A stretch of 23,140 bases of DNA from a virus (IMGVR_UViG_2869924733_000002), one strand, 5' to 3'; shown: positions 2,940 through 21,925, numbered from the stretch's first letter. Program-made: numbers and translations. The notes: generated by a model not told the origin, from the sequence alone.

Positions 2940-3236
2940 ACGTCATACCCTCTGGAAGGATGAAACACGCCCGGATTAAATTTCATTTTTCGCGGGTATA
3001 AAAAAACGATGGGGCGGGCAGTCCCGGATAGTCAGGGCTGTAGAGATTTGACTACCCCCTCCCCACTGGATTCAGGTTACTGCTATTCCGTTAAGCGCTG
3101 CTTACGGGGATAGCTGCGTTGTGATTTTGACCATTCAGGTCGCCGCTATTTCCTCACCGATTGGGTGCTACGCGCGCGCGTACTTGTCCCGAAATACCAG
3201 AAACCGCCAGCCAGAGGATGATTTCCCTCTGGTGGT

Positions 3237-3518
3237 CTACCTTTGCCTCTTGCCGCCATTTAACCGGAAGGCGTTACCGTTCGGTTGCGCTATCCCCATG
3301 CGGTGTTGCGTTTCGGTAACAGCTTTATGCAGGTCGCCAAATTCCTCAACCTTCACGGGCGGGCGCTTCACGTTCTCCAGACACGTTTCACGGCGGCGCT
3401 TTATCCATTCCCGATCATCGTCCTCGGTGCATAACAGCATGACTTCCATCCATCGTGCGGCAGCTCTCCGGTATAGCCCTTTTGACTCCAGCTCTTCAGC
3501 TTTCCTGTCCCTTATCAT
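3237..3518 (-). CDS. PerC-family transcriptional activator-like protein (93 aa)
   Basis: N-terminal block KAEELESKGLYRRAAARWMEVM matches the recalled PerC/Pch-family signature. Assignment is from memory of the family motif. Confidence 0.5.
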   Translation of the reverse strand: MIRDRKAEELESKGLYRRAAARWMEVMLLCTEDDDREWIKRRRETCLENVKRPPVKVEEFGDLHKAVTETQHRMGIAQPNGNAFRLNGGKRQR

Positions 3519-4378: not shown

Positions 4379-5342
4379 TTAGCTTTAATATCGAGTGGTG
4401 GATAGTCCATGGACAAGCTGATGGGCGCACTCGACGAAAACGATGCGCCAGGCGGACTGTGTCGCTCATAAACCGGGAGTTGGCCAGAGGACTTAGTTGT
4501 CCTTTGCAATTCTGCAGGTTCGCACGTGAAAGTAGCCAAAACCCTGCGAACCTGAGTGCAAACCTGCAACTGCGAACCACTGAGGTGGCCTCTCATAGCT
4601 GGTGGTCATACTGGATATTAATCAGGCCTGCCACAACCATAACAATCCATAACAGACGCATCGCACCAACAATTACTAATAGGTCCGCTCGCAACACTAA
4701 TTTTGACTAAGCCTGAACGCAATGCTCAGAAAGAACGAAGAATGGAATGAATCGTACCATCATGTTGCTCCATGATTTTTACGTTCAAGACAGTTGCTTA
4801 ATCTCGCCTCGCAATTCAGCCCCCTTGCCGTTATCGAGAAGTCTTTCTCCTTACGGTTAATGCTATCGGTCTTCATATTACCAGCAGCATACGCCATCCG
4901 ATTATTTCGATGCTACGCGCGCGTACTTGTCGCAAAATACCAGGCAAAGGCCAGATTCAGAACGTCGTGATAACCACCAGTACAACATGAGAGGTCATGT
5001 AACGCGATTTATCACACCAGATACATGTGATTGGTGTACCCGCATAAAACATCGTCATAGCGCGTCCTGTGCGCATATACGCCGATAATCAACACATCAC
5101 CACCACTCTGTCTCATGTAGAGAACAGTTTTATGGTATCCCCCCGCCATCGTGTGCATACTGGTCGGACGTAGTTGCAAAATTTTTTGCAACTGATACCC
5201 CTCGCGCGCGTACTTGTCTCGAAATTGGTGTTTTGCTGTGGCAGTGATATCAGAAAAATCTTCCTGTTTCACATAAAGCGGATATGCGCGTACTGTAACG
5301 GCCCCATCAACGGGGATCGGATTTGAAATCCCGACCCAAGCT

Positions 5343-5780: not shown

Positions 5781-7879
5781 TTATTGAGCTTCTTTTTGTG
5801 ATGCCTGTGCGACTCTGGTGAGCGATTGTGTGACCGTACTGATCGCTCTGTCATATGCTGTGCTACCTTTTGGCGTATTTGCCAGACGTAACAAGGCATT
5901 TCGTATAACAGGGCTTTCGTATGCCTTCGCTGCTCCGCCTACGGCACCAGCAGCAGGAACAACAAACGCAGCCGTTTTTAGCATCCCCGCTAATACTGCT
6001 GCGTTTATGATGCCACCACCAACTAACAATCCATAAAGCTGCTGACCATTTAAGTTTTGAACGTTCGCTTTTGCCGCGTGTCTTGTATCGTTGAGGTATT
6101 TAATAACGCCGTCCAGTTCCTTTCCATGTACGCCTTTAAAGAAAGTTGCTGATTGCTTCCTGTTCCGGTGTAACGCATTAATAAACTTCTCAACACTGAT
6201 ATTTCCAGACGGATCAGTCGCCTTATCTACAGCATTCTGAACTATGGCTGCTCGTGCGTTTTGCCTACCATTGTCATCCAGAAGCCTGTAAAGCTGAGAA
6301 CGTTCTGATGGGCTTTGGCTAAAAACGAGTTTTGTTACATCCTCAGGCGTGGCCTTGCCGCTGGCTATTGCCTTTTGAACGCGCGTTCTTCCCATCATGT
6401 CATTGAATTTAGACCATGAGCGATCAACCCTTGCCATATTAATGGCTTCGTCTGCTCCAAGATTTTTGGCTACGGCTTTTTTCATATCCGCCGTATATGC
6501 CTTGTAGATAATATCGCTGGCTTTCTGGAGCGTATCTTTATCAACAGTGTCAGATGACGCCATAAATCGCTTTCGAAGATCGGTTCTGTTTTCCCTCGCC
6601 AGACGCAGGTCATTTGGTCCGCTGGTGATATCGTCTTTAAATTGCTGCAAGACTTTTACCGCGGCTCTATCCTGAGATTTGCCCGGGCGGCTTAACACGG
6701 CAATCTGATTGTCGATAGCTTTTACCGTGTTTGAGAGATCGACAGGGGTATCCCCCATAGCGTCAATTATGCGGTTATATCGCTTTCCTGCTGCCTCAAT
6801 GAATTTTTGTTGCCCTTTAGTCGCAGATTCATAAAGCTGTTTATCAGAAATGCCACCCAGACCATCGCTAAATGTTCTGACTAAATTTTCTCGTGCTTGT
6901 TGTTGATTCAGCCGATTCTTACCGGTTCCAAAAAAAGGAACTCTTTCGCCTAATGTCTGAGCCTGACTCTGCATAAAGGTTTTATCTTTCAGCATGTCAC
7001 TGGTCATTAACGGCAGATTTCTTTCCGATGCAAAGTCGACAGCAGCCTTTGCTTCAGGCGACATATCACCACGAACAGCCCTCGAAACCGCACTCGCTGT
7101 ATTTTCCAGCCCCTTACCAATACCACCAATGCCAGCAGAAATTACCGTTTGTAACGGATCAATATCTTCTCCACCAGCAAGGCTGGTGGCTCCCTGTAGT
7201 GCTAAATCTGTAGCTGCTGATTTTCCTATAGCACCAAGCACCGTTCCAGCCCTGCCCACTGGTGTAAACGCCAACGCATTAGCAAGAAACGAAGTCAGGT
7301 CTTGCGGTGATAAACCCGGCTTGTTCAGGGCATAATCACCTGATGGCAGAGAAACGATAGTATTCCCCTTCTCATCCTGCCTTAATGTCGCCCCCATTCC
7401 CTGAAGAATCTTTTCCTGAGACGCGTCAGAGCCGAAAAGTTGAGACCATCCAGCCTTTAGGGCATCCATGCTTAGTGAGTTCAATTCTGGGGCAGAGGTG
7501 ACATTTTGCAGTCTCTCCATCTCTGGAGTCATTCGGCTTTCGCCTGTTATAGCATCGCGCATCGCAGCCCCAAGACTGGCTCCCTGTTCTGCTGAACGCT
7601 CAAGCCCCTCTCTTTGCTGAGTAGCTAACTTTGCATACCCTGACGCAAGAGAATTATCAGATGATGTATGTTGAATATTTTGAGTTGCTGATTGGGATCG
7701 GTCTATTTCATTCGTTGATGGTAGTGGATAGGCAGCATAAAAAGCCTGCTTAGCCTGCTCTACACTTTCTCCGGCTTGCGGGGCAACGACTTCATTGAAG
7801 TATTGCTCCTGAGCCTGCGCTTTTTGTTCTGGTGCTAACGCCTGATACTGTGGAGAGGCGATAACATCTTTCCATGCTT
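5781..7879 (-). pseudogene. Large alpha-helical protein (about 701 aa when reconstructed), cut from its start codon by an IS insertion; DNA-ejection/internal-virion-protein-like (tentative)
   Basis: Track ORF 5781..7562 stays open upstream to 7879. Removing the IS (7882-8797) and one TA copy joins it to ATG GC at 8800-8804, giving MAKAWKDVIASPQYQ... in frame with a TAATG overlap to the upstream gene. Has a hydrophobic Gly/Ala-rich segment near the C-terminus. Confidence 0.6.
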
Positions 7880-7941
7880 TAGGCTGTGTCCCTTAATCAT
7901 CTGAGCTATAGTAACTGTCTGTTTACACAACATATTGAACT

Positions 7942-8391
7942 ATGGCTCGCTACGACCTTCCCGATGAGGCATGGACCATCATCAAGCCCCTGTTACCTCC
8001 TGAACCCGCCACACCACGGGCCGGACGCCCATGGGCTGAGCACCGTAAAATCATCAATGGCATGTTCTGGGTGTTATGTTCCGGTGCACCATGGCGCGAT
8101 TTACCCGAACGATATGGGTCATGGAAAACTGTTTATAACCGCTTTAACCGATGGTCAAAGTCAGGCGTGATTAATATTATTTTCAACAGGTTGCTTTCGC
8201 TACTTGATGCAAACGGCTTTATTGACTGGTCTGCCACCGCGCTGGATGGCAGTAATATCCGGGCGCTGAAATGTGCCGCCGGTGCTCAAAAAAACATCCC
8301 GATATCGACGGAGATAATGGGCCGGGTCGCTCTCGCGGCGGTTTTGGCACCAAAATCCATCTGGCAACAGACGGAAGTGGCCTCCCGTTAA
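7942..8391 (+). CDS. IS5-family transposase OrfA (N-terminal part)
   Basis: MARYDLPDEAWTIIKPLLPP... is the N-terminal domain typical of two-ORF IS5-family transposases. Overlaps OrfB in the -1 frame. Confidence 0.8.
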   Translation: MARYDLPDEAWTIIKPLLPPEPATPRAGRPWAEHRKIINGMFWVLCSGAPWRDLPERYGSWKTVYNRFNRWSKSGVINIIFNRLLSLLDANGFIDWSATALDGSNIRALKCAAGAQKNIPISTEIMGRVALAAVLAPKSIWQQTEVASR

Positions 8392-8786
8392 ATATCGTGC
8401 TAAGCCCCGGACAAGCTCATGAAAGCCAGTTCGCGCAACGACTTCTGGACGGGATTGGCGTTCAGCGTCAGAACGGCAGCATGAAACGCCGTGGACATGC
8501 GGTACTGGCTGATAAAGCGTATTCAGGGCGCGCATTGCGCAACGAGCTGAAAAATAACGGTATAAAGGCAGTAATCCCCCGAAAGTCAAATGAGAAAATG
8601 GCATCGGATGGACGTGCACAGCTTGATCGTGATGCGTACTGCAATCGTAATGTCGTTGAACGGTGCTTTGGGCGGCTGAAAGAATATCGCCGCATCGCCA
8701 CGCGTTACGACAAAACGGCGAGAAATTACCTGGCGATGGTGAAACTGGGCTGCATCCGACTCTTTTATCAACGCTTACGTAATTAA
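8271..8786 (+). CDS. IS5-family transposase OrfB (DDE domain); probably expressed as an OrfAB fusion by -1 frameshift
   Basis: DDE-type motifs (GGFGTKIHLATDGSGLP..., DKAYSG, VERCFGRLKEYRRIATRYDK). An A7 run at 8288-8294 lies in the OrfA/OrfB overlap. Confidence 0.8.
   Translation: MCRRCSKKHPDIDGDNGPGRSRGGFGTKIHLATDGSGLPLNIVLSPGQAHESQFAQRLLDGIGVQRQNGSMKRRGHAVLADKAYSGRALRNELKNNGIKAVIPRKSNEKMASDGRAQLDRDAYCNRNVVERCFGRLKEYRRIATRYDKTARNYLAMVKLGCIRLFYQRLRN
8288..8294 (+). other. Candidate programmed -1 ribosomal frameshift heptamer (AAAAAAA) in the IS5-family transposase
   Basis: OrfA reads caa aaa aac; OrfB reads tca aaa aaa cat, shifted by -1 over the same A-run. Confidence 0.5.
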
Positions 8787-9887
8787 GGGACACAGCCTAG
8801 CCATTAATCACCCCATAGTGAAGAAAAGTTACTGCTGGCTGCTGGCTGTGATACCTGCTCAGATTGCGGCAATGTCTGCGACGAAGAAGAAGTTCCTCTG
8901 TCAACTGCTGAAATAACCCGCAAAGCATCATAAGCTCGACCAGAAGCAGCTTTCAGCGAATTGAACTGGTTTTCCATCTTCCGGCGCTTGGTATCAATGG
9001 TTTTTGTGGAGTCGCCAGGCTGAGGGAAATACATTTGATAATATTTTGACATTTCAGCAGGTGCGATAGCTGCCCCTGTTTCCTGACGGAGTATTGCCAT
9101 TATTGCGTCATTAGCATTAACAACGTATTGCTGCTCTGTTGGGCTGAGCGTTAAGTTAGCCAGCGTCCCATTACCCAAAGCATTATTAATGATCGCCACT
9201 CGCTGTGGGCTAAGCTGGTCTTTCAGTGTATCTATTGAATCAAGAGCATCCCTAACCCTGTATGCAAATCCAGCAGCTTTTTTAGCCCCTTCTGGCGACT
9301 TTTCCATGATCTTTTGGGCTGTTGGCAAAGCTATTGGACGAAACCCATCTCCAGATATTGGCTGGTTTAGTTTTCCCTGCTCTTCACTTCCGTCTGTGTA
9401 GTATTTTGTGACAGTGCCATCATCGTTTTCTCTAACACTCATTAATTTTTTGGCGTTTGTATTAATTCCAGCCGCTGCCGCAAATGCCGCCGCCCCCTCT
9501 GGATCCGCCTTTAACATTTGAGCGTACTGATTGTAATTCTGCATTGCTGCTGTTGGTGCATATGCTGACGTTAACGCATTTGCTCGGCTAATATCCTGCC
9601 CTCTCGCCTGAAGTGCTTCGCCAGCCTGATTGCTGCGGATTGTCTCTGCCAACTTGCCACGCTCAATATCCCGACCTTCCATTTGATCTTTGATATCGAA
9701 ATACTTCTCATGACCGAGAGAAAACAGTGCCATACTACCAGCAAGCCGCTGGAATCCCTGTGGATCATTAACATGCATTTCGGCAACAGACTCAGGAGAA
9801 ATTCCCAAGCGACGCATTTCATCTTCGTTATCTGCTATGAATTTTCCAAATGCCCCAGTTCCGAGCGAAGATGCGATTTGAGCACTA

Positions 9888-11040
9888 AATAGCTGCGCTT
9901 AATACCGCTACACTTTTGCCAGTCCATGTTTGCCTCCGGGGAATGGGCTGACGGTTTCCATAAAATGGCGAACTTTTTTCAACAGTTGCCACATTGAGCG
10001 GCACTGATGATTACGCGTTATTGTGTCGTGAAGTGCCTGCCATAGCCGTTCAACATGATTCACCCATGGCGAGTAAACCGGCTGATAAATGACCCTGAAC
10101 TTCGGGTTCTCCTTCAGCCAGCTCTGTGTTTCCCGGCTTTTGTGGATAATGTAGTTGTCCACGATCAGCGTGATGGTTTTCGCCCGACGGTATGTCGCTT
10201 TAAGCCGCTTCAGCAGGCTGATGAACAGCGCCGAACTTTTGCTGTTGCCGCCCACATAGCTGACTTTACCTGTCCCGCTGTGCAGCGCTCCGGCCAGATA
10301 ATATTTTTCATTCTGTCCCGGCGTGACCACCCGTTTTTGCTGTCCGCGCAGTTGCCAGTCCGCACCGATTTTGGGATGAAGATGGATATCCACTTCATCT
10401 TCATAAAAGACCGGATGCTCTGCGCTGCATTCGTCCAGTGCTTTATGGATTGCTGCCATCTTTTCATCTTTATGCGGGTCACGGATACGCAGAGTTGGCG
10501 CAGCCCTTCGCCACACAATCCCCGCAGACGGCAACCAGCGGCGAACGGTTCCGGCATTTAACTGGCAACCGGTTATCTCATTGATTTTTATTGCCAGCAG
10601 TTCTGTACTCCAGCGTGAACGCTGGTAGCCAAAGTCGCCGGGAGAATGTTTTACCAGCTCACGTAACAGTGTGCAGATATGCTCAAACGGCCAGCGACGG
10701 GCACGCCCGGCAGGTAATGATTTCAGTCCCTCAACACCCGACTGCGTGAACCAGTTAATCCAGCGTCCAACAGAGGAACGGGCGCAGCAGAGCGTTCTGG
10801 CAACGTCGCTGACACGGTCGCCCCGGTGCAGCATCAGCATGGCAGTCAGTCTGCGGGCATAATTTTTATCGTGTGTTTTATGGATGGCTTTCTGCATCAG
10901 GCGTCGTTCGTCACGGGAAATTGGTGCTATGATCGGCATTGCTCAGTCCGGTTGGTGATTTGTTTTGATTTGGCGATTGATCAGATCGCACAATCCGGGC
11001 TAAGTTCCCTCAAAATGATCTACTATTCCGCGCAGCTATT
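9888..11040 (-). mobile_element. IS630 (1153 bp) inserted at a CTAG target with TA duplication
   Basis: Terminal inverted repeats: aatagctgcgc at 9888-9898 and its reverse complement gcgcagctatt at 11030-11040. TA at 9886-9887 and 11041-11042. Length is exactly 1153 bp, matching the recalled IS630 size. Confidence 0.9.
9908..10939 (-). CDS. IS630-family transposase (343 aa)
   Basis: Full-length 343-aa ORF inside the IS630 boundaries, recognised as the Tc1/mariner-like IS630 transposase. Confidence 0.9.
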   Translation of the reverse strand: MPIIAPISRDERRLMQKAIHKTHDKNYARRLTAMLMLHRGDRVSDVARTLCCARSSVGRWINWFTQSGVEGLKSLPAGRARRWPFEHICTLLRELVKHSPGDFGYQRSRWSTELLAIKINEITGCQLNAGTVRRWLPSAGIVWRRAAPTLRIRDPHKDEKMAAIHKALDECSAEHPVFYEDEVDIHLHPKIGADWQLRGQQKRVVTPGQNEKYYLAGALHSGTGKVSYVGGNSKSSALFISLLKRLKATYRRAKTITLIVDNYIIHKSRETQSWLKENPKFRVIYQPVYSPWVNHVERLWQALHDTITRNHQCRSMWQLLKKVRHFMETVSPFPGGKHGLAKV

Positions 11041-11379
11041 TAGTCGCAAGATGACCAATAGAATTTCTCTGGTCGTCATCAATAAAGCCCATCCCTTTCT
11101 GAACGCTTTCAAATTCTTCTGGATACTCAGAAATAAGACTGCGCATTTTGTTTCTGTCTCCAGACTCAAAAGCCCCGGCATATGCTTTCTGAAACTCTGC
11201 TTTACGCTGTTGTTGACGTGCCTGCTGATTAATCTCAGCAACGCCTCTTAGCCCCTGTAGCGCCATTAAACCTACGTTTGGGTGCTGCTGATACTGCACA
11301 GGCTGAGGAACGGAAGAACGAGGAGCATTATCATTTTGCGGTGCCATGCTAGGCAGCCCGCCAAGTTGCCATGTCGCCA

Positions 11380-12057
11380 TTAGAATCCAAGCCCCCCAAC
11401 AAGACCAATAAGCCCACCACCAATAGCCCCGGCGACATTACCTATACCCGGAACAACGGAACCAAGTTGCGCACCCGCTAAAGCGCCTGATGCCGCCCCA
11501 CCAATACCACGCGCAAGACTGGATGGCTGCTGCGCCTGACCTGCACGAATAGCGCCAAGCCCCTGCAAGAGTTGCCCGGTATTATTGGCGTAGTTTTGCC
11601 CTGCTGTTGCCTGCCCTGATGCCGCATTCATCCCGACATTTAGCAGGTTTCCATAATTTTGCATTTGCCCACTGAGCCAATTGTTATAAAGCATGGGCGC
11701 AATGGAAGATAACTGGTTACTGGTAGCTGTTGAGCCAAGCCCCCCGGTAGCTTCTGCTGAGACAAGGTTCTGATAACGGGCCTGATCTGCCTGTGTTTTA
11801 TATAAACCAGAACCAAAGAAATCATTCGCGGCTTTATTCTGCCCTTCCAGAGTCATCAGTCCTTGCAGTTGTTGTAAAGCAGGCAATCCGACTTCTGCAT
11901 ACGGCTTGAGATTATTCATCACCGTATTCCACTGCTCGCGCTGCAAATCAATTGCCTGCTGCTGGGCCTTCGCCTGAGCTTTAGAGGCACCACCATCACC
12001 GCCTTTTTCGTATACGGCACGATTGAGATGTTTATGAGCTATATGGGTAATTAACAT
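11380..12057 (-). CDS. Hypothetical protein (225 aa) with Gly/Ala-rich glycine-zipper C-terminus; ejection-protein-like (tentative)
   Basis: C-terminal ...GIGGAASGALAGAQLGSVVPGIGNVAGAIGGGLIGLVGGLGF. Stop overlaps the next start (TAATG); start overlaps the upstream gene by 7 nt. Confidence 0.65.
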   Translation of the reverse strand: MLITHIAHKHLNRAVYEKGGDGGASKAQAKAQQQAIDLQREQWNTVMNNLKPYAEVGLPALQQLQGLMTLEGQNKAANDFFGSGLYKTQADQARYQNLVSAEATGGLGSTATSNQLSSIAPMLYNNWLSGQMQNYGNLLNVGMNAASGQATAGQNYANNTGQLLQGLGAIRAGQAQQPSSLARGIGGAASGALAGAQLGSVVPGIGNVAGAIGGGLIGLVGGLGF

Positions 12058-12512
12058 TCGCTGAATTCCTTATATTGTTGCCGAGTTAACTGATAAAGCG
12101 TTACGCCGACGGGTTTACCACATCTGATATAAGCATCATCAAGGTGACCAACACGGGTAGCGCCAAGCAAACGGATAATTGCCCGTCCATATTTCGTGGT
12201 GTCAGGAACCATAGTGATGCTGTTAAGGAATGGTGAGTTTTCGAGAAGCCATTTGCAGAATAATCGATGCCCTTGCAGTGCATATTCACCACGGAATCCG
12301 GGGTCGTACACCGCATGGCATTCAACAACGCTATGCCAGAAGTTACGCACTTCATGAACGCCAGCCAGCACTAATCCTTCGTAGATGCCGAGATATACCG
12401 CATCAGGCTTGATGTAGTACGTGTGCCCCGGCTCAACAATATTTTCGGTATTGCCTGGCTCGTTAAGAAAGGCCTGTAATCGCACAGGGTTATCAATAAA
12501 TTTTAGTTCCAT
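12051..12512 (-). CDS. Hypothetical protein (153 aa), first large gene of the operon
   Basis: ATG at 12512 lies 16 bp after the stop of the 53-aa ORF. Protein-like composition; no family recognised. Confidence 0.6.
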   Translation of the reverse strand: MELKFIDNPVRLQAFLNEPGNTENIVEPGHTYYIKPDAVYLGIYEGLVLAGVHEVRNFWHSVVECHAVYDPGFRGEYALQGHRLFCKWLLENSPFLNSITMVPDTTKYGRAIIRLLGATRVGHLDDAYIRCGKPVGVTLYQLTRQQYKEFSEC

Positions 12513-13274: not shown

Positions 13275-16034
13275 TCATTCTTCAGATGAGTTATAATCTC
13301 CTGGCTGGTAATTGAGTACATAAACGTTTATTTGTCGTCCCTGAATACGTGGTGATTTTCTTTGGTATCCACGACCGCTGTTTGGTGGGGTTAGCATCCC
13401 GGCTTTTTTCAACACTTCAGCAAACTGTTTTGCGTTGAAACCACATGCGATCTCCTTTTCAAATGTGGCCGGGAATGTGTAGAAAATCATTGGGCTTTCG
13501 TCATGTTCTCCACGCTGACGGTATCCGGCTAAATCTTTGATGGGCAAATCTGCCGGGCTGTATGGAAATGGTGCAAAACGGCTAAGCCCATAGGCATTAA
13601 GAAATGCCTCCGTTTGTTCAATAATCTGCTGATGTTCTTTGTTACCTGTGCCGAACTCGCGCAACCATGCGTTATAGCTGTGCTGTATCGCATCACGGCA
13701 TGTCTGAGCATCCCAGCCTGTTACAACCTCGCCTAACAGCAATGCGGCCTCCAGAATGGCAAATCGCGCGGCTACACGGTGAACCTGCTCACCATAATCG
13801 GATGGGATCAGGTTTCTCCATCTGCTTTCGCAATCACGAACGGTTTTAATAGCCTGTTGCTGGTGGTCTGCCAGCCATTTAATCCACTCACGCCCGGCTG
13901 CGCCGTGGTGATGCTGGTAAGCGTCTTTCAGTGCGTCTGCGTGCTGTTTTCCGTTCTGGTAATCGTGAAAGCGTACTGCTTTACTCAACGGAATATTCAG
14001 CAGTCGCACCAGTTGCCCGGCTTTGGTTTTTCGCCCGGAAGTAGCGATAAATGTTTCTAAATCCATTTCTCCGGTGCTGATTGCCACTGTACGCCAGCGT
14101 TTTAGATCCCGGTTTCCACCATCTTTAGCGCCTTGCAGTTTCCCTACACCGTTAAATAACGCATAGGCAGACTGTGAAACGCTGACAGGATCAGCGCCCT
14201 GACCAACTTCATCAAGCGGCATTAGTCCGTCATTGTGGGCGGCGGCCTCATTTGCCAGCCCCAGCGCGGTTCCGTACCACGTCAGCCGCAGTAAATCAGG
14301 GTTGCCGTATAAGCTGCTCGCCACGTTTGCCGTGGTGGTCTTACCTGCGCTCGACTGCTCATAGAAATGAATGCCGAACCCGTCAGCGCCCACCAGCCCA
14401 ATCAATGGCGCTGCCAGTGCTGCGCCGATCCCGGTCATCATTGAATAGTTACCAAAGGCCAGACGCGCCACGTTATCACGCCAGCTTTTCGCGCTCCCTG
14501 AGACGGTATATCCGGCTGCGGCTGAGCTTCTCCCGCTGAACAGCACAGGATTTTCAGGTGTTCCGATGATTTCCCCATCAGGCATGATGTACGCTCCGCA
14601 TTGCCAGCCAGTGGCATGAGCAACACGCCACAATTCACGAGAGCCACTGCGTTGTAGCCAGTCTGCCAGTATTGCTCTGAGGCTGCTTTTGGTCGTGACA
14701 TTTACCCCACCAGCTTTAAGTGTGCGCCATCCTTCACGTTCACCAATATCAGCCAGTGGAATGGCAGCGGTTGTCGGCGTTTCAGAACCAAACGACAGCC
14801 AGCGAAGAATGAGATACTGGTCTTTATCGTCTCTGCCAGTACCGATAACGCTTAACGGAGAACATAACCAGCTTTCGTTATTGATGATTTCTCCACTCTG
14901 GCTGTCAGCTCTCGGAGATACCCAATAAATACCATCCTCGCGGCTTTCTATTCTTGGTTTCAGTGGGTCGGTATCCATAACCTTAAAATCGCTTCCCTCA
15001 ATGGTCTGTGGCTCCTGTTTCACGCCATTACCCTGTGGTTGGTACATTGACTTATTGAACGCTTCTGTGGCGCATTTAATGCCGTGTTTTTGGTGGTAAT
15101 CATTCCAGTCTGCTTTGTGATCTGTCGGGGGTAATGCCACCCATCCAGAAACAGATAAAGCTGCTTTTTCTGCTGCTATTCTCCCCGTGTTTTGTCTTCC
15201 TTCGCTGTGGTCGTTATCCGCAGCAATGATGATTTGTGCTGAAGGAAATTTATCCCGCAGTACCTGGGCGACATATAACAGGTTCCCGGCATCAATCGCC
15301 GCCACTGTCAGCGCCTCTGGACGAATTAAATGGGCAGATAATGCCGTTGCCAGCCCTTCTGCGATTAAGATGCTCTGTGTTGTTTCTGGCGCGTTTATGG
15401 CGTGATATGCCCCCCGCTTTGCTGAACCTGTCAGGAGTCTTTTTTCACCATGTGATGTAATAGTCTGTGCTGCTGTGACTGCGCCGGATTTATCCACCAG
15501 CGCCAGCAACAGAGATCCATCGGGCAACACGGGGAATGTAAAATCACCTACCCCTTTCGCAACCAGATAATCAGATTTGCCGTTTACAGCCTTTCTGCGC
15601 ATGTCATCAAACTGACGGGAAAACGTATCCCGTCTTTGTTGTTCGTCCTTCTCTGCCCTTTTCAGGCGCTCCTGTTCGCGTCGCTGGCGCTCGGTTTCCA
15701 GTTGTTCCCGTTTCTGGCTGGTGGCTTCTGGTGTTTCCGTTGTCCGGTAATCAATACCCAGAACATCAGCGGCAAGAAGCGCCGCCTCTGTTGTGTCGCA
15801 GTTATTTACGCGTTTAATTAAATCCAGCCCATCACCAGCGCCGCACTGATTACAGATGAAGCTACCGCGCCCGTTGTCATCGAACCGGAATCGATCTTTG
15901 CCCCCACATGCAGGGCAGGGAGCATGACGGCGCGGAGAGTCAGGGACATTTATGTTCAGGCAGCCCAGCACATGAGGCCAGTTGTTTTCAGACGCACTGA
16001 TAACCTGACGGATAAGATCAATGTTTCGCATCAC
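13275..16034 (-). CDS. P4 alpha-like bifunctional DNA primase-helicase
   Basis: 919 aa. N-terminal Cys-rich zinc-binding motif (CPACGGKDRF...CNQCG), primase-like acidic motif (IIIAADNDHSEG), then a P-loop (EQSSAGKTT) in the helicase part. Start is GTG at 16034 or ATG at 16031. Confidence 0.9.
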   Translation of the reverse strand: MMRNIDLIRQVISASENNWPHVLGCLNINVPDSPRRHAPCPACGGKDRFRFDDNGRGSFICNQCGAGDGLDLIKRVNNCDTTEAALLAADVLGIDYRTTETPEATSQKREQLETERQRREQERLKRAEKDEQQRRDTFSRQFDDMRRKAVNGKSDYLVAKGVGDFTFPVLPDGSLLLALVDKSGAVTAAQTITSHGEKRLLTGSAKRGAYHAINAPETTQSILIAEGLATALSAHLIRPEALTVAAIDAGNLLYVAQVLRDKFPSAQIIIAADNDHSEGRQNTGRIAAEKAALSVSGWVALPPTDHKADWNDYHQKHGIKCATEAFNKSMYQPQGNGVKQEPQTIEGSDFKVMDTDPLKPRIESREDGIYWVSPRADSQSGEIINNESWLCSPLSVIGTGRDDKDQYLILRWLSFGSETPTTAAIPLADIGEREGWRTLKAGGVNVTTKSSLRAILADWLQRSGSRELWRVAHATGWQCGAYIMPDGEIIGTPENPVLFSGRSSAAAGYTVSGSAKSWRDNVARLAFGNYSMMTGIGAALAAPLIGLVGADGFGIHFYEQSSAGKTTTANVASSLYGNPDLLRLTWYGTALGLANEAAAHNDGLMPLDEVGQGADPVSVSQSAYALFNGVGKLQGAKDGGNRDLKRWRTVAISTGEMDLETFIATSGRKTKAGQLVRLLNIPLSKAVRFHDYQNGKQHADALKDAYQHHHGAAGREWIKWLADHQQQAIKTVRDCESRWRNLIPSDYGEQVHRVAARFAILEAALLLGEVVTGWDAQTCRDAIQHSYNAWLREFGTGNKEHQQIIEQTEAFLNAYGLSRFAPFPYSPADLPIKDLAGYRQRGEHDESPMIFYTFPATFEKEIACGFNAKQFAEVLKKAGMLTPPNSGRGYQRKSPRIQGRQINVYVLNYQPGDYNSSEE

Positions 16035-16389
16035 CGTACCCCACGTGGTCTATAGCGTTTGCGATATGGCTAACCAGCATCTGCCACTTGGTTATTCCGT
16101 AATCAGTCAGCATGCCATCATTGTTTAGCCACATATCAAATTCAGCGGTTGTCGCAAGTTTCCACTTATCGCCGTGGACAGTCCTCATTGCTGGGTACAT
16201 GAATGCGCAAATCAGATCACAAACATCTGACGGCTTCAGAGATGTAGTAATGGTGCGTCCCTCTGGCGTCTGAATTGCCATTTTCTCTTCACCAGTAGAA
16301 TGAAGGTTATGAATCCACACAGCACCAGCAATCTTTGCCACCTGCTCTCCGATTGCGGAGCTAAGCGCCATTTCTGCATTTTCACGCAT
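16018..16389 (-). CDS. Hypothetical protein (123 aa)
   Basis: Strong SD (GGGAGG) before the ATG at 16389. Overlaps the primase start. Confidence 0.6.
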   Translation of the reverse strand: MRENAEMALSSAIGEQVAKIAGAVWIHNLHSTGEEKMAIQTPEGRTITTSLKPSDVCDLICAFMYPAMRTVHGDKWKLATTAEFDMWLNNDGMLTDYGITKWQMLVSHIANAIDHVGYGDAKH

Positions 16390-16723
16390 GAGAACCTCCC
16401 GCTACAGTTGCGCCCATGTCATTAACCATGCTTTGCCATATCTCACGCCCGACGTCAGTCAATCCGTCCTTAGTGACGCAACGCTCAAGAAGCTCGATCC
16501 CCACGGTTTCCCACTGCGGGTAGAACACTTTCATGGCTGCCAGTGTGTAGCTATCGATCAGGCTGCGAACGCCTTTTACTCCATTAACGATTTCCACACG
16601 TACGGCCTCGCCGTCCGCATCAACCATGAAATAGTCCCCGCCGCTGGTGGAGGTAATGTGGTTATACAGTGCCGACGCATACTTATTTGCCAGCGCATTC
16701 AGTCGGAAATTTTTAGTAATCAT
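16382..16723 (-). CDS. Hypothetical protein (113 aa)
   Basis: SD GAGGATGGAG before the ATG at 16723. Overlaps the downstream start by 8 nt. Confidence 0.6.
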   Translation of the reverse strand: MITKNFRLNALANKYASALYNHITSTSGGDYFMVDADGEAVRVEIVNGVKGVRSLIDSYTLAAMKVFYPQWETVGIELLERCVTKDGLTDVGREIWQSMVNDMGATVAGGSHA

Positions 16724-16733
16724 GGCTCCATCC

Positions 16734-17336
16734 TCAGTGCGTCACTGGTTCCGCTGGCATGCCGTTTTCATTCAGTTCAGCTATAAAGCTGTTGTGAAGT
16801 TCAGCAAGCGTTTCACGACCAAATGGAGTCAGTGCTCCTTGTTCCACATCCATCATGGCTCTGTAGAAAATGATGGCGCGTTCTGTGCCAGACTCGATGC
16901 CAAAACGTTCTATCATCGCTCCCTCAATGTTGTTTGCCATAGCGAGGCGCTCTGCTACTGGATACAGCGGCATGGCGACGATGCCGTTGGAATAAACAGC
17001 CACTTCGGAAGGATTGCCAGTATCATCAATGATGCTGACAGTGCCGTTTTCCTCTCTCATTTCCAGCATGAATACTGTTGCGATCAGCCATCTCCACATA
17101 ATGACGTTATGCTGTGATGTGTAATCGAAATATCCCTGGTTGCCGCCATCGGCAATAGCGAGATGTATTGACATACCTTCATCTGGTTTATCGTCATAAT
17201 CCCCGGCATCCAGACGATTTACGGCATCAATATATGAGACGGCCTCAACGCGTTCTGTCATGCCATCGTTGCTGCGGTACATGATGTTTACGCCGTCAGG
17301 CGTTGCTTCTGTATGGAAAGTTAAGAAATTATTCAT
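16734..17336 (-). CDS. Hypothetical protein (200 aa; track ORF 16734..17441 trimmed to the internal ATG)
   Basis: The ATG at 17336 (MNNFLTFHTE...) has an SD-like AGGCGAGG and avoids overlap with the upstream gene. The longer track start lacks an SD. Confidence 0.5.
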   Translation of the reverse strand: MNNFLTFHTEATPDGVNIMYRSNDGMTERVEAVSYIDAVNRLDAGDYDDKPDEGMSIHLAIADGGNQGYFDYTSQHNVIMWRWLIATVFMLEMREENGTVSIIDDTGNPSEVAVYSNGIVAMPLYPVAERLAMANNIEGAMIERFGIESGTERAIIFYRAMMDVEQGALTPFGRETLAELHNSFIAELNENGMPAEPVTH

Positions 17337-17550
17337 GTTTCGCCTCGCCTGAATGATTCTGTAACTCATATTTGCCCAACAATTCGTCCGCTTCCTGAAT
17401 AGCTTCTGGTACGCCATTGAGCAGTGACATAACCGCGCCAATCATTAACTTGTCTCTGTTGCTGGGGCTGGCCCCTTCAAGCCAGAACCCTAAAACAGTC
17501 TGAACCTGTTCGATGCGACATTGCGCTTCAATGAGCTGGATGTTGGTCAT
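17329..17550 (-). CDS. Small hypothetical protein (73 aa)
   Basis: SD GGAGAG before the ATG. Overlaps its neighbours by a few nt on both sides. Confidence 0.5.
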   Translation of the reverse strand: MTNIQLIEAQCRIEQVQTVLGFWLEGASPSNRDKLMIGAVMSLLNGVPEAIQEADELLGKYELQNHSGEAKHE

Positions 17551-17810
17551 TTCGCACTCTCCACATCGATTAAACCGATATCTATCAGGGAGGTAACTTT
17601 TTGTAGCCAGCTATTGATTACTGTCGCCTGTTCCCCGCCCACCGAGGGAACAATCTCATTCATCACATGAACCAGACCTGTGCGCGCTCTGGTAAGCCGT
17701 TCAGTCGCGCAATCTGCGGGAGTGAATGTGTCTGGATATGGCTCTTCACGCCCCAGCAATGATTCAATTTCCAGCTCACACGGATGACGATAAATTAAGT
17801 TGATATTCAT
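17547..17810 (-). CDS. Small hypothetical protein (87 aa)
   Basis: SD GGGGGTG before the ATG at 17810. Start overlaps the upstream stop. Confidence 0.5.
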   Translation of the reverse strand: MNINLIYRHPCELEIESLLGREEPYPDTFTPADCATERLTRARTGLVHVMNEIVPSVGGEQATVINSWLQKVTSLIDIGLIDVESAK

Positions 17811-18001
17811 TTTTCACCCCCAAGAATTACCAGCTCGGCACGGGCATCGTTAACCAAAGATGAGCACGCTTTAATCGCATCCACGACATCAGTAGCGTCC
17901 ATTTCTTCAGCCGAAAGACTGACAGCAACCAGGACAGCCGCTGCTTGCTCGATTAATTGAAGTGCGGACGTAAGGCGAGGGGTATTAATTGAGTTATTCA
18001 T
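17807..18001 (-). CDS. Small hypothetical protein (64 aa; track ORF 17807..18058 trimmed to the internal ATG)
   Basis: [23 protein letters not shown]... The ATG at 18001 is preceded by a G-rich SD. Confidence 0.45.
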   Translation of the reverse strand: MNNSINTPRLTSALQLIEQAAAVLVAVSLSAEEMDATDVVDAIKACSSLVNDARAELVILGGEK

Positions 18002-19061
18002 TGGTTGCCCCCGTTTTTCCTGGCATTTCGCCACCTTCCAGCAGGAAATGAACGTCACGAACGGCGAGATCCAATATCGCGAGTAACGCCTTCAGTCTTT
18101 CGTCTCGTGAGGGAGAGTTGCTCACCAGAATGTCGTTAATCACTTCTGTCAGTGTGATGATCTGGCTTGTGCGTTCGAGGGGATCCATATGCACATCGTA
18201 GGTTTTAATCATGTGCCACCTCCATGCGGATACGACCAGCAAAAAAGCAGATGTGATCGCGCACCAGAGAACGGCGAGCATCGCGTTCAGACTCGGCAGC
18301 AATATGATGAATTTTGGCGGTAATTGTCGGGCAATCGCGGCGAACTGCGGCGATAATCCAGATAAATTGCGGTTTTTGGGTAGTGGTAGTAGCCAGCATG
18401 TGGCAGCCTCCTTGTACTGGGAGTTCTTCCCACCACCGGAGCTGCGAAACTCGCTGGTGGTGGACTGAACAGAGTTCGCAGTACCGGCGTACAAGGAAAC
18501 CGGCCAGCCTTTCGGCTGCCCTGTCCAGCCCACCATAATTTTGCAAGCGACGCGGATTATAACCGCATCACTGAAAAAAGTGTGAGTCTGGCTAACGGCA
18601 CAAAAAAAGACGCTCGGCGCGTCATGTGTCGCCTCGTACATTTCCGGGCTGCGAAACCCGGCACCCGTTTTATGAGGTGCCTTATAACCATAAACCGTGT
18701 TGCCGCATAACGGCAAGCTCTTTTTTATGGACTCCGAAAACTCACTATTGGAAGCACCAGATGCACAATACATCGCGCTCATTTCGTTAACGTCGCGCGT
18801 GTGGACGAAGGTTTTTGTGGAGTCACTACGCGAGCAGAGAAAGCCATCTACGACCAGAAATTCTCTGGCGCAGCCGCCGACCTTCTCAACGCTAACACCA
18901 TCGACCGTAATTTCTGACATAGTTAAGGCATCCGCTCCCACCACCAGAAAATGATAAACTTTGCTTGTATCTGCTGTATTAATGCCAGACTTTGCTGTCA
19001 TATTGCTGGATTTTGGCGACATACCAGCCAGTGAAAATATCTTCTTCTGGACGGTTAGCAT
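17994..19061 (-). CDS. Gene with a strong start at 19061; the 355-codon open frame has an ambiguous 3' end (see findings)
   Basis: ATG at 19061 with GGAGGT SD, 1 nt after the upstream stop. The N-terminal 150 or so residues look protein-like. The frame then stays open through a terminator-like hairpin (18601-18623), a structured region and an internal SD+ATG at 18212 (MIKTYDVH..., 72 aa). Confidence 0.4.
18205..18399 (-). CDS. Small hypothetical protein (64 aa) in an alternative frame
   Basis: AAGGAGG sits 7 nt upstream of the ATG at 18399 ([19 protein letters not shown]...). Its stop overlaps the internal ATG at 18212. Confidence 0.4.
   Translation of the reverse strand: MLATTTTQKPQFIWIIAAVRRDCPTITAKIHHIAAESERDARRSLVRDHICFFAGRIRMEVAHD
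18601..18623 (-). terminator. Putative intrinsic terminator or attenuator inside the long open frame
   Basis: Minus strand: GACGC-GCCGA-GCGTC hairpin followed by TTTTTTT. A TGA in another frame sits just before it. Confidence 0.35.
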
Positions 19062-19237
19062 TTGTTAACCTCCGCGAACTCCTTCATGAAGCGCGCCAGC
19101 GGTTGTACGCATGGCGATTGATACCCGTCGCGATAAAACGTCACTCGGTTGTGAGACACGCTTTCGACAGTAACGAGTGCTCCGTGGGCATCCTTGTAGC
19201 GTTTTTGAGGTTGTGGTGTTCCTGTCGGCTTAAACAT
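19055..19237 (-). CDS. Small hypothetical protein (60 aa; track ORF 19055..19324 trimmed to the internal ATG)
   Basis: GGAGGTGG lies 4 nt upstream of the ATG at 19237 (MFKPTGTPQPQKRYKDAHG...). The longer track start would overlap the upstream gene by about 95 nt. Confidence 0.5.
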   Translation of the reverse strand: MFKPTGTPQPQKRYKDAHGALVTVESVSHNRVTFYRDGYQSPCVQPLARFMKEFAEVNKC

Positions 19238-20063
19238 GGACCACCTCCAGACGCTTAGCGAGCCAGCGTTGCGACAGGCGGGTGAGTTCTCCTTTGCGCT
19301 GCTCATATTCCATGCCCATATCAATTAACGTGATATTGGTGCTTTCGAGATATGAGAGGTGCTCAAGTTGTTCTGCGTTCATATGGTCGCGAGGTTCGCC
19401 AGAATAGCCATTTATCCGCGCCCACTGCTTAGCAGTTAGCCCACCAAGAACGATACGAGAAATCATATTGCTCTCGTTTGTGTAGTGGTGTTGCTGCGTC
19501 GTTTTCCCCTGCTCGGCACGGGCCATATTCAGCGCATCGCACATTGGCTTAAAGTTGTTTGCGGCACTGATACGGGCTTTTAGCTGGCGACGATAGCGGG
19601 CGGCGATTTCAGGAACGCTACGCTGTAATTCTTCCTCGCACTGGATGAAATAACGGCGGATAGCGCGACCCTGATCATTGCGTTCGATCATTGCCAGTTC
19701 TTTCGCCATTCCGACACTTAACAGATAGTCTTTGCCGGGTCTGCCAGACTGCTTAATCTTTCTGTAAGCCGCGCCATTCGGGCTTTTCCCCAAATTTGGG
19801 GAAATAGTTTTATGGACTGAGTAATCGTGCCCAATGGTGAAGTCATATTCAGAGATGCGATCAGTGATCCATGTAGAGAAGTCTTTTCCCACGCCCAACG
19901 CTTTGTGTAACGCTTTTGCGCTAACAATATTGGTTTCACGCCCACCGATATGACCAGGAATAACCGGGACAATTGCGGCAAATTCATTACCGTTAATTGT
20001 GCTCAGAGAGGCGTTCAGATGAGGGGCGGCCTCAGAAATTAATCTGCTTTTTTCGATGTTCAT
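19230..20063 (-). CDS. Phage antirepressor/regulatory protein-like (Ant/KilAC/Rha-type), 277 aa
   Basis: The block SAKALHKALGVGKDFSTWITDRI ... KDYLLSVGMAKELAMIERNDQGRAIRRYFIQ resembles recalled antirepressor signatures. SD GGAGA before the ATG. Confidence 0.55.
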   Translation of the reverse strand: MNIEKSRLISEAAPHLNASLSTINGNEFAAIVPVIPGHIGGRETNIVSAKALHKALGVGKDFSTWITDRISEYDFTIGHDYSVHKTISPNLGKSPNGAAYRKIKQSGRPGKDYLLSVGMAKELAMIERNDQGRAIRRYFIQCEEELQRSVPEIAARYRRQLKARISAANNFKPMCDALNMARAEQGKTTQQHHYTNESNMISRIVLGGLTAKQWARINGYSGEPRDHMNAEQLEHLSYLESTNITLIDMGMEYEQRKGELTRLSQRWLAKRLEVVHV

Positions 20064-20075
20064 TTTCAGTCTCCG

Positions 20076-20507
20076 TTAAGCGGCGTTAAACGCGTCCGGG
20101 TAGAGTTTCAGAATGTCGGCAATTTCCTGCTGAGAAAGTCCGTTGTGATCATTTATGTTCGCAAGATGGTTAATATGAGTGATCACTTTCAGAACATCAC
20201 CACGGCAGGAGAAACGGTAGCGAAGGTGTGTTCCGATACCATCAGGATTCTTTTCGTCGATACGCTCCAGAGTGATTCCAAGCTGGCGTTCTAACTCTGT
20301 TGCATAGTTACGACCAGAAGACAGACGGCAGTAGCGAAGAATGTCATTTTCTGTCCATCCCTCTATACCAGTACGCAGCATATAGACTCTGGCACGATGC
20401 TTTTTCGGTGTGCGCTTTGGTGCTTGAAGGGATTTTGTAAGGGGCGTAACATCAGATACGCGAATATCTGAATTAGCCGCCTGTAATGGGCGGTTTTTCT
20501 TATTCAT
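20076..20507 (-). CDS. Hypothetical protein (143 aa) with a basic N-terminus
   Basis: Start overlaps the AlpA stop as TAATG. No family recognised. Confidence 0.55.
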   Translation of the reverse strand: MNKKNRPLQAANSDIRVSDVTPLTKSLQAPKRTPKKHRARVYMLRTGIEGWTENDILRYCRLSSGRNYATELERQLGITLERIDEKNPDGIGTHLRYRFSCRGDVLKVITHINHLANINDHNGLSQQEIADILKLYPDAFNAA

Positions 20508-20704
20508 TACGCTACCTCGCCACGCGACTCAGCGATGCGCTGATTAATCCATTCTTCAATTTCACTTTCAATAAACGCAATTGATCGGCTTCCAATCTTT
20601 ACAGATTGAGGGAATCGCTGTTCTTTGATGAGCCGATAAATCCACGCTTTGCTGTAACCAGTACGGCGTTGAACCTCAGAAAGACGAATAAATGATTGAG
20701 ACAT
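20507..20704 (-). CDS. alpA: AlpA-family phage transcriptional regulator / excisionase-like protein
   Basis: 65 aa, MSQSFIRLSEVQRRTGYSKAWIYRLIKEQRFPQSVKIGSRSIAFIESEIEEWI. SD AGGAG upstream. Confidence 0.85.
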   Translation of the reverse strand: MSQSFIRLSEVQRRTGYSKAWIYRLIKEQRFPQSVKIGSRSIAFIESEIEEWINQRIAESRGEVA

Positions 20705-21783: not shown

Positions 21784-21925
21784 ACGCCACCCCGCGCCCC
21801 TAATTCTGACGGCTATGCCAGCCCGTAGGGGTGTACGGGTTTTCGGGGATCAGCCTAGACATAGCCTATTCTTTGTTCGTCTACATAAGTCTACTACCAT
21901 TGCTTAACACGGTCTATTCATACAG

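Follow-up and report, generated by a model that had tools for sequence, protein, structure and literature searches.

Two structured RNAs in front of kil

The 23,140-nucleotide stretch of viral DNA IMGVR_UViG_2869924733_000002 (hereafter the window, that is, the whole stretch that was analyzed) carries between positions 18400 and 18700 a compact module of two structured RNAs, an isrK/seqA-type leader and a C4/CI-type antisense RNA, which lies in front of a kil gene and is overlain by a 355-amino-acid (aa) open reading frame (ORF). Judged by its sequence identity to known loci, the element that bears the module is a variant of the EcCIMP1-type phage-inducible chromosomal island (PICI) of Escherichia coli, and the module is very probably the immunity (replication-control) switch of this island, built like that of the satellite phage P4. 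Unless a plus sign is given, all the features described below lie on the minus strand, and the coordinates are those of the window.

The leader, extending from 18680 to 18603, is a match to Rfam family RF01394 (69.0 bits against a cut-off of 50, E 4e-13). It consists of hairpin 1 (18680-18661), hairpin 2 (18660-18645), which holds the target site a1 in its loop, a linker with the target site b1, and an intrinsic terminator of the form GACGC-GCCGA-GCGUC followed by U7 (18602-18623). Folding 78 sequences with RNAalifold, independently of the Rfam model, gives a consensus of 16 pairs, 9 of them with compensatory changes. The C4/CI-type RNA follows at 18540 to 18453 as a full-length match (1-87) to RF01695 (81.1 bits against a cut-off of 45, E 8.9e-15). 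It is composed of a 17-bp basal stem and two hairpins, and here the Rfam-independent consensus fold of 72 non-identical relatives has 28 pairs, of which 19 show compensatory changes. The mature RNA is predicted to run from about 18535 to 18455 with a CCA end; in the window this CCA follows the basal stem at 18457-18455, and it is found in 74 of the 80 loci surveyed below. IsrK has been described as a structural homolog of P4 seqA and C4 as a homolog of the P4 CI RNA (PMC3632133, PMC4825925), and as the CI RNA of P4 and the C4 RNAs of P1 and P7 are substrates of RNase P (PMC5499578), the C4 RNA of the window is predicted to be likewise cut by this enzyme from a longer transcript.

Two recognition segments are exposed in the C4 structure, namely, a' (CUGCGAAC, 18474-18481) in the unpaired junction and b' (UUUCCUUGUACG, 18488-18499) in the loop of the second hairpin, and each is complementary to one site in the leader and to another downstream of C4. 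In the leader, a1 (GUUUCGCAG, 18649-18657) forms 7 contiguous Watson-Crick pairs with a', and b1 (UGUACGAGG, 18632-18640) forms 9 contiguous pairs with b', G-U included (5 Watson-Crick; -11.7 kcal/mol). Downstream, a2 is displayed as GUUUCGCAG at 18450-18442 in a hairpin (18430-18463), and a'-a2 in the window amounts to 7 bp; the b2 site (GUACAAGGAGG, 18407-18417) forms 11 contiguous pairs with b' (9 Watson-Crick and 2 G-U; -14.9 kcal/mol), which makes this duplex the strongest of the four. Within b2 lies AAGGAGG, the Shine-Dalgarno sequence of kil, 7 nucleotides (nt) upstream of the start codon at 18399. The kil gene itself (18205-18399), the first one behind the module, codes for a 64-aa protein that is homologous to Kil of P4 (40% identity over 57 aa, E 6e-12) and that RefSeq names “Icd-like” in strain MP1. 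PHROGs labels the same protein “transcriptional repressor,” a label that was probably inherited from the old annotation of the P4 gene as “cI protein.”

Part of this arrangement had been recognized in a preliminary description of the region, made from the sequence alone, which drew attention to a 9-nt motif displayed in two hairpin loops together with its near-complement. The 23-kb window does hold two copies of the motif, CTGCGAAAC, and no more (18442-18450 and 18649-18657, +), where shuffled sequences lead one to expect 0.16 copies and yielded two in 1 case out of 100; its near-complement lies at 18474-18481, where the minus strand reads CTGCGAAC, the sole copy on that strand. The two hairpins were located correctly, the first with the arms CCACCACC and GGTGGTGG at 18430-18437 and 18456-18463 and the second with CCGGG and CCCGG at 18644-18648 and 18657-18661, and an independent terminator scan recovered the terminator-like hairpin with its U7 (18602-18623). 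We can now identify the 9-mer as target site a, the first hairpin as a conserved structure directly behind C4 that displays a2, the second hairpin as hairpin 2 of the leader, the terminator-like hairpin as the terminator of the leader itself, and the near-complement as the C4 junction segment a', so that the proposed order of motif, complement, and motif on the minus strand corresponds to a1, a', and a2. Of the checks that had been suggested, RNA folding shows the 301-nt minus-strand RNA of 18400-18700 to fold better than 100 of 100 shuffles (z = -4.7), and the Rfam covariance-model search returns both C4 and isrK at gathering level on exactly the features that had been pointed out.

The earlier account needs some amendment. 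Motif and complement are joined by 7 contiguous Watson-Crick pairs (CUGCGAA with UUCGCAG), to which an eighth can be added only with a 1-nt bulge; further, the complementarity holds for the a sites as proposed, while the second and longer set of b', b1, and b2, including the site on the kil ribosome-binding site, had been missed. The 5' arm of the first hairpin (18456-18463) doubles as the 3' arm of the C4 basal stem, and because this arm is common to both, the a2 hairpin and the basal stem are mutually exclusive, alternative structures.

A separate set of repeats at 4516-4578 (+) recalls one of these segments: three copies of TGCGAACC, one of them inverted, lie within 63 unannotated nt near an AlpA-like helix-turn-helix gene on the opposite strand, and the 8-mer CTGCGAAC within them equals the C4 a' sequence. 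These repeats are possibly protein-binding, and the match to a' may be a coincidence.

A promoter-like site, the counterpart of P4 PLE, lies at 18687-18716 with a -35 hexamer TTGCCG (18716-18711), an 18-nt spacer, and a -10 hexamer TATGGT (18692-18687), ending 6 nt before the isrK 5' end at 18680. In most of the 80 loci, hexamers of this kind (cTTGC...N17-18...TATAGT/TATGGT/TACAGT) precede the leader 5' end by a constant distance, with spacers that vary in sequence, and we regard the site as a candidate leader promoter. Overlapping its -35 hexamer is a perfect inverted repeat, TTGCCG-CATAA-CGGCAA followed by a T-run (18700-18716, +), which has the score of a terminator on the plus strand. No gene on that strand leads into it, and it may serve to bind a protein or to terminate transcription in both directions.

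Co-variation of the recognition segments with their targets

A survey of related modules took as its anchor the leader terminator, which does not depend on the recognition sites, and looked for it in one genome per species, after which nhmmer placed the whole module in about 88 loci; the 80 complete ones that were used come from Escherichia, Klebsiella, Enterobacter, Kluyvera, Pectobacterium, Pantoea, Xenorhabdus, and other Enterobacterales. Having served as the anchor, the terminator is invariant among these loci by construction. The recognition segments are highly diverse, with 17 a' sequences and 45 b' loops in 55 combinations, and the target sites change along with them: the longest Watson-Crick run between a' and a1 is exactly 7 in all 80 loci (mean 7.0), and the corresponding means are 6.9 for a'-a2, 7.45 for b'-b1, and 8.65 for b'-b2, as against 3.7-4.0 for non-cognate pairings. 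Duplex energies are about -12 to -14 kcal/mol for cognate and about -7 kcal/mol for non-cognate pairs; in the case of a'-a2 the energy test was uninformative, as GC-rich flanks give rise to strong non-cognate duplexes, and the length of the longest complementary run inside the site regions was used in its place. As for the a2 hairpin, 76 of the 80 loci form its 8-bp stem, with 23 different pairs of arms among them, and 78 of the 80 hold a2 in the loop.

Because the co-variation of a1 and b1 with a' and b' is as tight as that of a2 and b2, it indicates that the leader sites are themselves under selection as pairing partners. The survey also shows that the immunity specificity predicted for this module family is written in two short RNA segments that reassort independently of each other. 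The specificity class of the window is found in just one other locus among the 80, that of Escherichia sp. MOD1-EC7003 (L038). Taken together, the Rfam matches, the P4-like order, the homology to Kil and Eta, and the complementarity across the 80 loci support the suggestion in the preliminary description of a P4-like antisense-RNA immunity locus.

The reading frame over the module

The 355-aa ORF (17994-19061), named “ash family protein” in RefSeq, corresponds to P4 eta. Beginning upstream of the promoter-like site of the leader, with a GGAGG 7 nt before an ATG that overlaps the stop of the preceding DUF4222 gene, it reads through isrK, C4, and the a2 and b2 sites, passes kil out of frame, and joins the frame of a 72-aa gene (ATG 18212). 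Its product aligns with P4 Eta, and the frame is the same through both the leader and C4. The Pfam domain Phage_ASH (PF10554) covers aa 124-232 of the ORF (E 2e-28), corresponding to nt 18366-18692, which is exactly the RNA module; the “Ash” family signal may largely be RNA-level conservation that has been read in one frame. RefSeq treats the ORF unevenly: in strain EC26 it is a single coding sequence, whereas in MP1 (L127 24352-25067) it appears as an “incomplete” ash pseudogene and a separate Icd-like gene. The ORF sequences of the two strains are near-identical and intact in both.

In 56 of the 80 loci the Eta frame stays open all the way from the 5' end of the leader to the start codon of kil; among the remaining sense frames this holds in 6 of 160 cases, and among the antisense frames in 9 of 240. 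The 24 loci without an open frame over the RNAs belong mostly to a short-spacer group that includes a P1-like phage, and in these the RNAs are free-standing. The RNAs thus appear to be the constant feature of the family and the covering ORF a frequent addition that is seemingly under selection. In 53 of the 80 loci the eta frame is also in frame with kil, and the run-on past kil into the next gene seen in the window recurs in six others. The frame of that next gene is open backwards over the whole of kil in P4 (L002 7888-8460), in the window (18205-18399), and in six other loci; therefore, an eta frame shifted by 1 nt reads on into the next gene.

Comparison with the MOD1-EC7003 locus gives an identity of 90.7% and a dN/dS of 0.45 for the N-terminal third of the ORF, 97-99% and 0.05-0.14 for the neighboring genes, and an identity of 99.4% for the RNA part. 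From this small data set we read the selection as acting mainly on the openness of the frame, with at most a weak constraint on the product. According to the passage of PMC10111431 that cites Forti 1999, P4 eta is a translated gene that covers the CI RNA and has kil nested within it, and its translation from an upstream promoter prevents termination. The preliminary description had named full translation of the 355-aa ORF as evidence that would refute an antisense RNA here; this does not follow, because by the same passage the translated eta of P4 overlaps the CI RNA, and translation of the ORF would hence leave the RNA interpretation intact.

The island and its gene neighborhood

Loci in several E. 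coli genomes match the window with 100% identity, and EcCIMP1 of E. coli MP1 matches it at 98.4-99.4% over the parts that the two have in common, with the RNA module itself identical. EcCIMP1 is a functional PICI that resides at tRNA-Thr beside proA and is mobilized by the P22-like phage Kapi1, its excision and transfer requiring its AlpA protein; the RNAs go unmentioned in its description, where the region is entered as “Ash family protein” (PMC11773190). Matches to C4 and isrK have already been reported in other Gram-negative PICIs and in helper-embedded PICIs, as have PICIs with CI and seqA relatives within the genes of the “Bro network” (PMC10111431). A near-identical module, over at least 80% of its length, is present in 130 of 5,426 complete E. 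coli genomes.

The gene order in the island is int-alpA-module-primase, as in P4, with kil directly after the module. Upstream lie the tightly packed genes alpA (20507-20704), an ORF of 143 aa, antA (19230-20063), and the DUF4222 gene (19055-19237), which together span 19055-20704 and the last of which overlaps the start of the 355-aa ORF. Downstream, an operon of seven small overlapping genes and a primase with TOPRIM and DUF927 domains (13275-16034) occupies 13275-18212; from its position and by analogy with P4, it is likely to be controlled by the RNA switch. The AlpA/Vis protein and its P4 counterpart are 37.5% identical; for the N-terminal part of the primase, the identity to alpha of P4 is 34%. 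When P4 proteins were searched against the window with tblastn, int, alpA/vis, eta/kil, and the N-terminal part of the primase were all that the two elements had in common, and the same search gave no match in the window for sid, delta, psu, epsilon, cII, gop, or beta. The possibility that the island is a P4 satellite proper was ruled out, as it has no homologs of sid, delta, psu, and epsilon. We also rejected a classification of the locus as a P1-type immI, given that the antirepressor gene antA lies upstream on the same strand and that kil, the small ORFs, and the primase lie downstream.

Elsewhere in the island, the Rfam int-alpA RNA (RF02996) is found at 21798-21865 (46.7 bits against a cut-off of 35.8), between the genes for the integrase and a DUF6387 protein. 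P22-like DNA-ejection genes (DUF2824, ejection and injection proteins) at 5781-12512 match those drawn as “DNA transfer” genes in EcCIMP1, and in strain EC26 an IS66 element sits among these ejection genes (L001 8373-10709).

A proposed switch and its alternatives

Work on P4, P1, and Gifsy-1 suggests how the parts of the module might act together with regard to RNA processing, termination, and translation. A constitutive leader promoter at about 18716-18687 would start a transcript near 18680, the first 78 nt of which would constitute the isrK/seqA-type leader ending at the intrinsic terminator. Transcripts that read through would carry the C4/CI-type RNA (18540 to 18453), which would be excised, its 5' end by homology made by RNase P, and would accumulate. 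Its exposed a' and b' segments would then pair with a1 and b1 in the leader and with a2 and b2 downstream. Pairing at b2 would block translation of kil by way of its ribosome-binding site, and pairing would cause premature termination as in P4, so that the small genes and the primase stay silent in the quiescent island. On induction of AlpA by a helper phage, transcripts from upstream would bear ribosomes translating the eta-like ORF through the leader, C4, and the a2 and b2 sites; this translation would prevent the RNA structures and their pairing, and transcription would thereby reach the replication genes. Two terminators in P4 invite comparison: Briani et al. reportedly placed in 2000 an intrinsic terminator, t1, the efficiency of which is governed by CI and seqA, between PLE and cI, and a second site, t4, after cI, in addition to the Rho-dependent timm. 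We take the leader terminator of the window to correspond in position to t1 and the a2 hairpin to t4.

Several points weigh against this proposal. Both small RNAs of the island are predictions, and the promoter-like site of the leader is only consensus-like, falling below the threshold of a simple consensus scan. The eta-like frame in the window is out of frame with kil, as the sequence immediately ahead of the kil start codon differs from that of P4 by 1 nt, and because of this shift, the nested eta/kil arrangement of P4 is not reproduced exactly. As the island has no homologs of epsilon, delta, sid, or psu, the trigger of derepression must differ from that of P4. Finally, the manner in which pairing at a1 and b1 would enhance termination in the leader cannot be derived from the sequence; as to an antiterminator by which such pairing might promote termination, just a 4-bp GGCG/CGCC element was seen.

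An unlikely alternative that nonetheless carries real weight is that the locus follows the logic of the P1/P7 immI region alone, with C4 as a translational repressor of kil/icd, Rho-dependent polarity behind it, and a1, b1, and the leader terminator taking no part in silencing. The strongest of the duplexes (b2, with its 11 pairs and -14.9 kcal/mol) does fall on the kil ribosome-binding site, the Kil homolog is called “Icd-like” by RefSeq in MP1, and a P1-like phage has the same C4 with icd downstream; however, a1 and b1 co-vary as tightly as a2 and b2 (7.0 and 7.45 against 6.9 and 8.65), the antirepressor gene is upstream of the module rather than downstream as in P1, and the order int-alpA-module-primase is that of P4. 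It is improbable, in our estimate, that the leader serves mainly as an activator in the manner of IsrK in Gifsy-1; in that case the leader RNA of the window, terminated at 18603, would sponge up a' and b' in trans and free the kil ribosome-binding site. The leader of the window carries both a1 and b1 and its own terminator, and in Gifsy-1 the translation of the antirepressor downstream rises 140-fold when IsrK is provided in trans, with a processed RNA, STnc1160, at the place expected of C4 (PMC4825925). Against this, the same element of P4 is reported to be necessary for establishing immunity (PMC3632133), and the module of the window precedes replication genes, as in P4, and not an antirepressor. 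The roles of the leader as a target of repression and as a sponge could also coexist.

The remaining alternatives dispense with the RNAs. One takes the conserved entity to be a protein, the “Ash family” domain of the 355-aa ORF, with the RNA-like features being incidental; the Pfam match (E 2e-28 over aa 124-232), the RefSeq annotation of the ORF as a protein, and the frame open in 56 of 80 loci might be cited for it. Yet that match coincides exactly with the RNA module, and 24 of the 80 loci, including the P1-like phage, keep the RNAs with no open frame across them. Moreover, concerted changes at three places preserve base pairing while turning FRS into REN or IGV, the stems show compensatory changes, and the N-terminal third of the ORF evolves faster than its neighbors (dN/dS 0.45), all of which render a protein-level explanation very improbable. 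That the short repeats and hairpins came together by chance has nothing but the shortness of the motif in its favor and is refuted by the covariance-model scores, the shuffles, the z-score of the fold, the co-variation, and the compensatory changes, leaving it a virtually negligible probability. We hence favor the P4-like switch proposed above.

Potential cross-talk with phages

The helper Kapi1 has no C4 or isrK module and encodes a P22-type sar RNA instead, and matches to the a and b sites are about as numerous in its genome as chance predicts (7 observed and 7.25 expected for one, 5 observed and 5.9 expected for the other). A b1-like sequence, GTACGAGGA, does lie at L128 13103-13111, 9 nt before the start of the antirepressor gene Kapi1_032, with no a site nearby. 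RNA targeting of this helper is accordingly not supported, there being neither a module nor an enrichment of target sites.

A different situation obtains in a P88-like phage of the P2 family (Peduoviridae; L125; phage records PV468777.1 and ON470599.1), which possesses a complete isrK and C4 module within its early operon (L125 3337-3534, minus strand), directly before a gene (3050-3280) for a 76-aa “derepression protein” homologous to P4 epsilon (32% over 50 aa). The a1, a', and a2 sites of this module equal those of the island, and the first 34 nt of the leader are identical; the b loop is different, and its sites are partly compatible, with 8 contiguous pairs at -9.0 kcal/mol as against the cognate 11 pairs at -14.9. 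The identical 34-nt piece of the leader is also present in about 280 E. coli genomes that do not contain the full module of the island. The common a sites and leader piece may reflect reassortment of specificity segments or real cross-regulation. It is conceivable, and we consider it distinctly improbable, that the RNA of the island dampens the derepression gene of this phage or that the phage RNA holds off the replication genes of the PICI. If true, this would constitute RNA-level cross-immunity between a satellite and a phage family that is not known as its helper.

Significance and comparison with known systems

The switch is of a long-known kind that is detected by curated models, and the known mechanism is left unchanged. 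What the analysis adds is the assignment of a concrete control element to EcCIMP1, for which the publication and the RefSeq records give just “Ash family protein” in this region. It also counsels caution in annotation, as the Ash signal, the PHROGs label of Kil, and the uneven RefSeq annotation can probably all be traced to one RNA locus, through which ribosomes would pass as well. The two-segment specificity, with its 17 x 45 variants and 55 combinations, should be useful for predicting the mutual immunity of satellites and phages. The b sites, the co-variation survey, and the specificity class are worked out here and go beyond what is given for EcCIMP1.

Among known systems, the closest parallel is offered by P4 (L002), in which isrK (8692 to 8615) and C4 (8507 to 8420) represent the same two families in the same order and on the same strand; phage SfV has the same pair, again in this order. 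The likeness to P4 extends to a promoter-like site at the same distance, the leader terminator, a and b complementarities both upstream and downstream, a downstream site on the kil ribosome-binding site, the Kil homolog itself, a covering ORF in the Eta frame, and the position of the module between alpA/vis and the primase operon. The two differ in their specificity, with a' being CUGCGAAC in the window and UUCUCAC in P4 and b' being CCUUGUAC and CCUGUGAA, respectively, and in the spacer between terminator and kil, which measures 224 nt in the window and 270 in P4. Further differences are the eta-like frame of the window, which a 1-nt shift puts out of step with kil and which continues into the following gene, the lack of homologs of epsilon, delta, sid, psu, cII, gop, and beta in the window, and the helper, which is a P22-like phage for the near-identical EcCIMP1 and P2 for P4.

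With the immI region of P1 and P7 (c4-icd-ant), the locus shares the C4 family, a target on the ribosome-binding site of a small first gene (icd or kil), and the shape of an RNase P-type substrate with a 3' CCA; unlike in immI, the antirepressor gene of the window is upstream of the module and outside its control, the module is embedded in an ORF, and replication genes follow in place of ant. The IsrK-orf45-anrP locus of Gifsy-1 in Salmonella is similar in having an isrK-family leader and the same terminator, with partial read-through, followed by a processed RNA and a small ORF; it differs in that it controls an antirepressor and, through it, the antiterminator AntQ, with IsrK acting as an activator (PMC4825925), whereas the module of the window precedes a replication operon, which it would repress.

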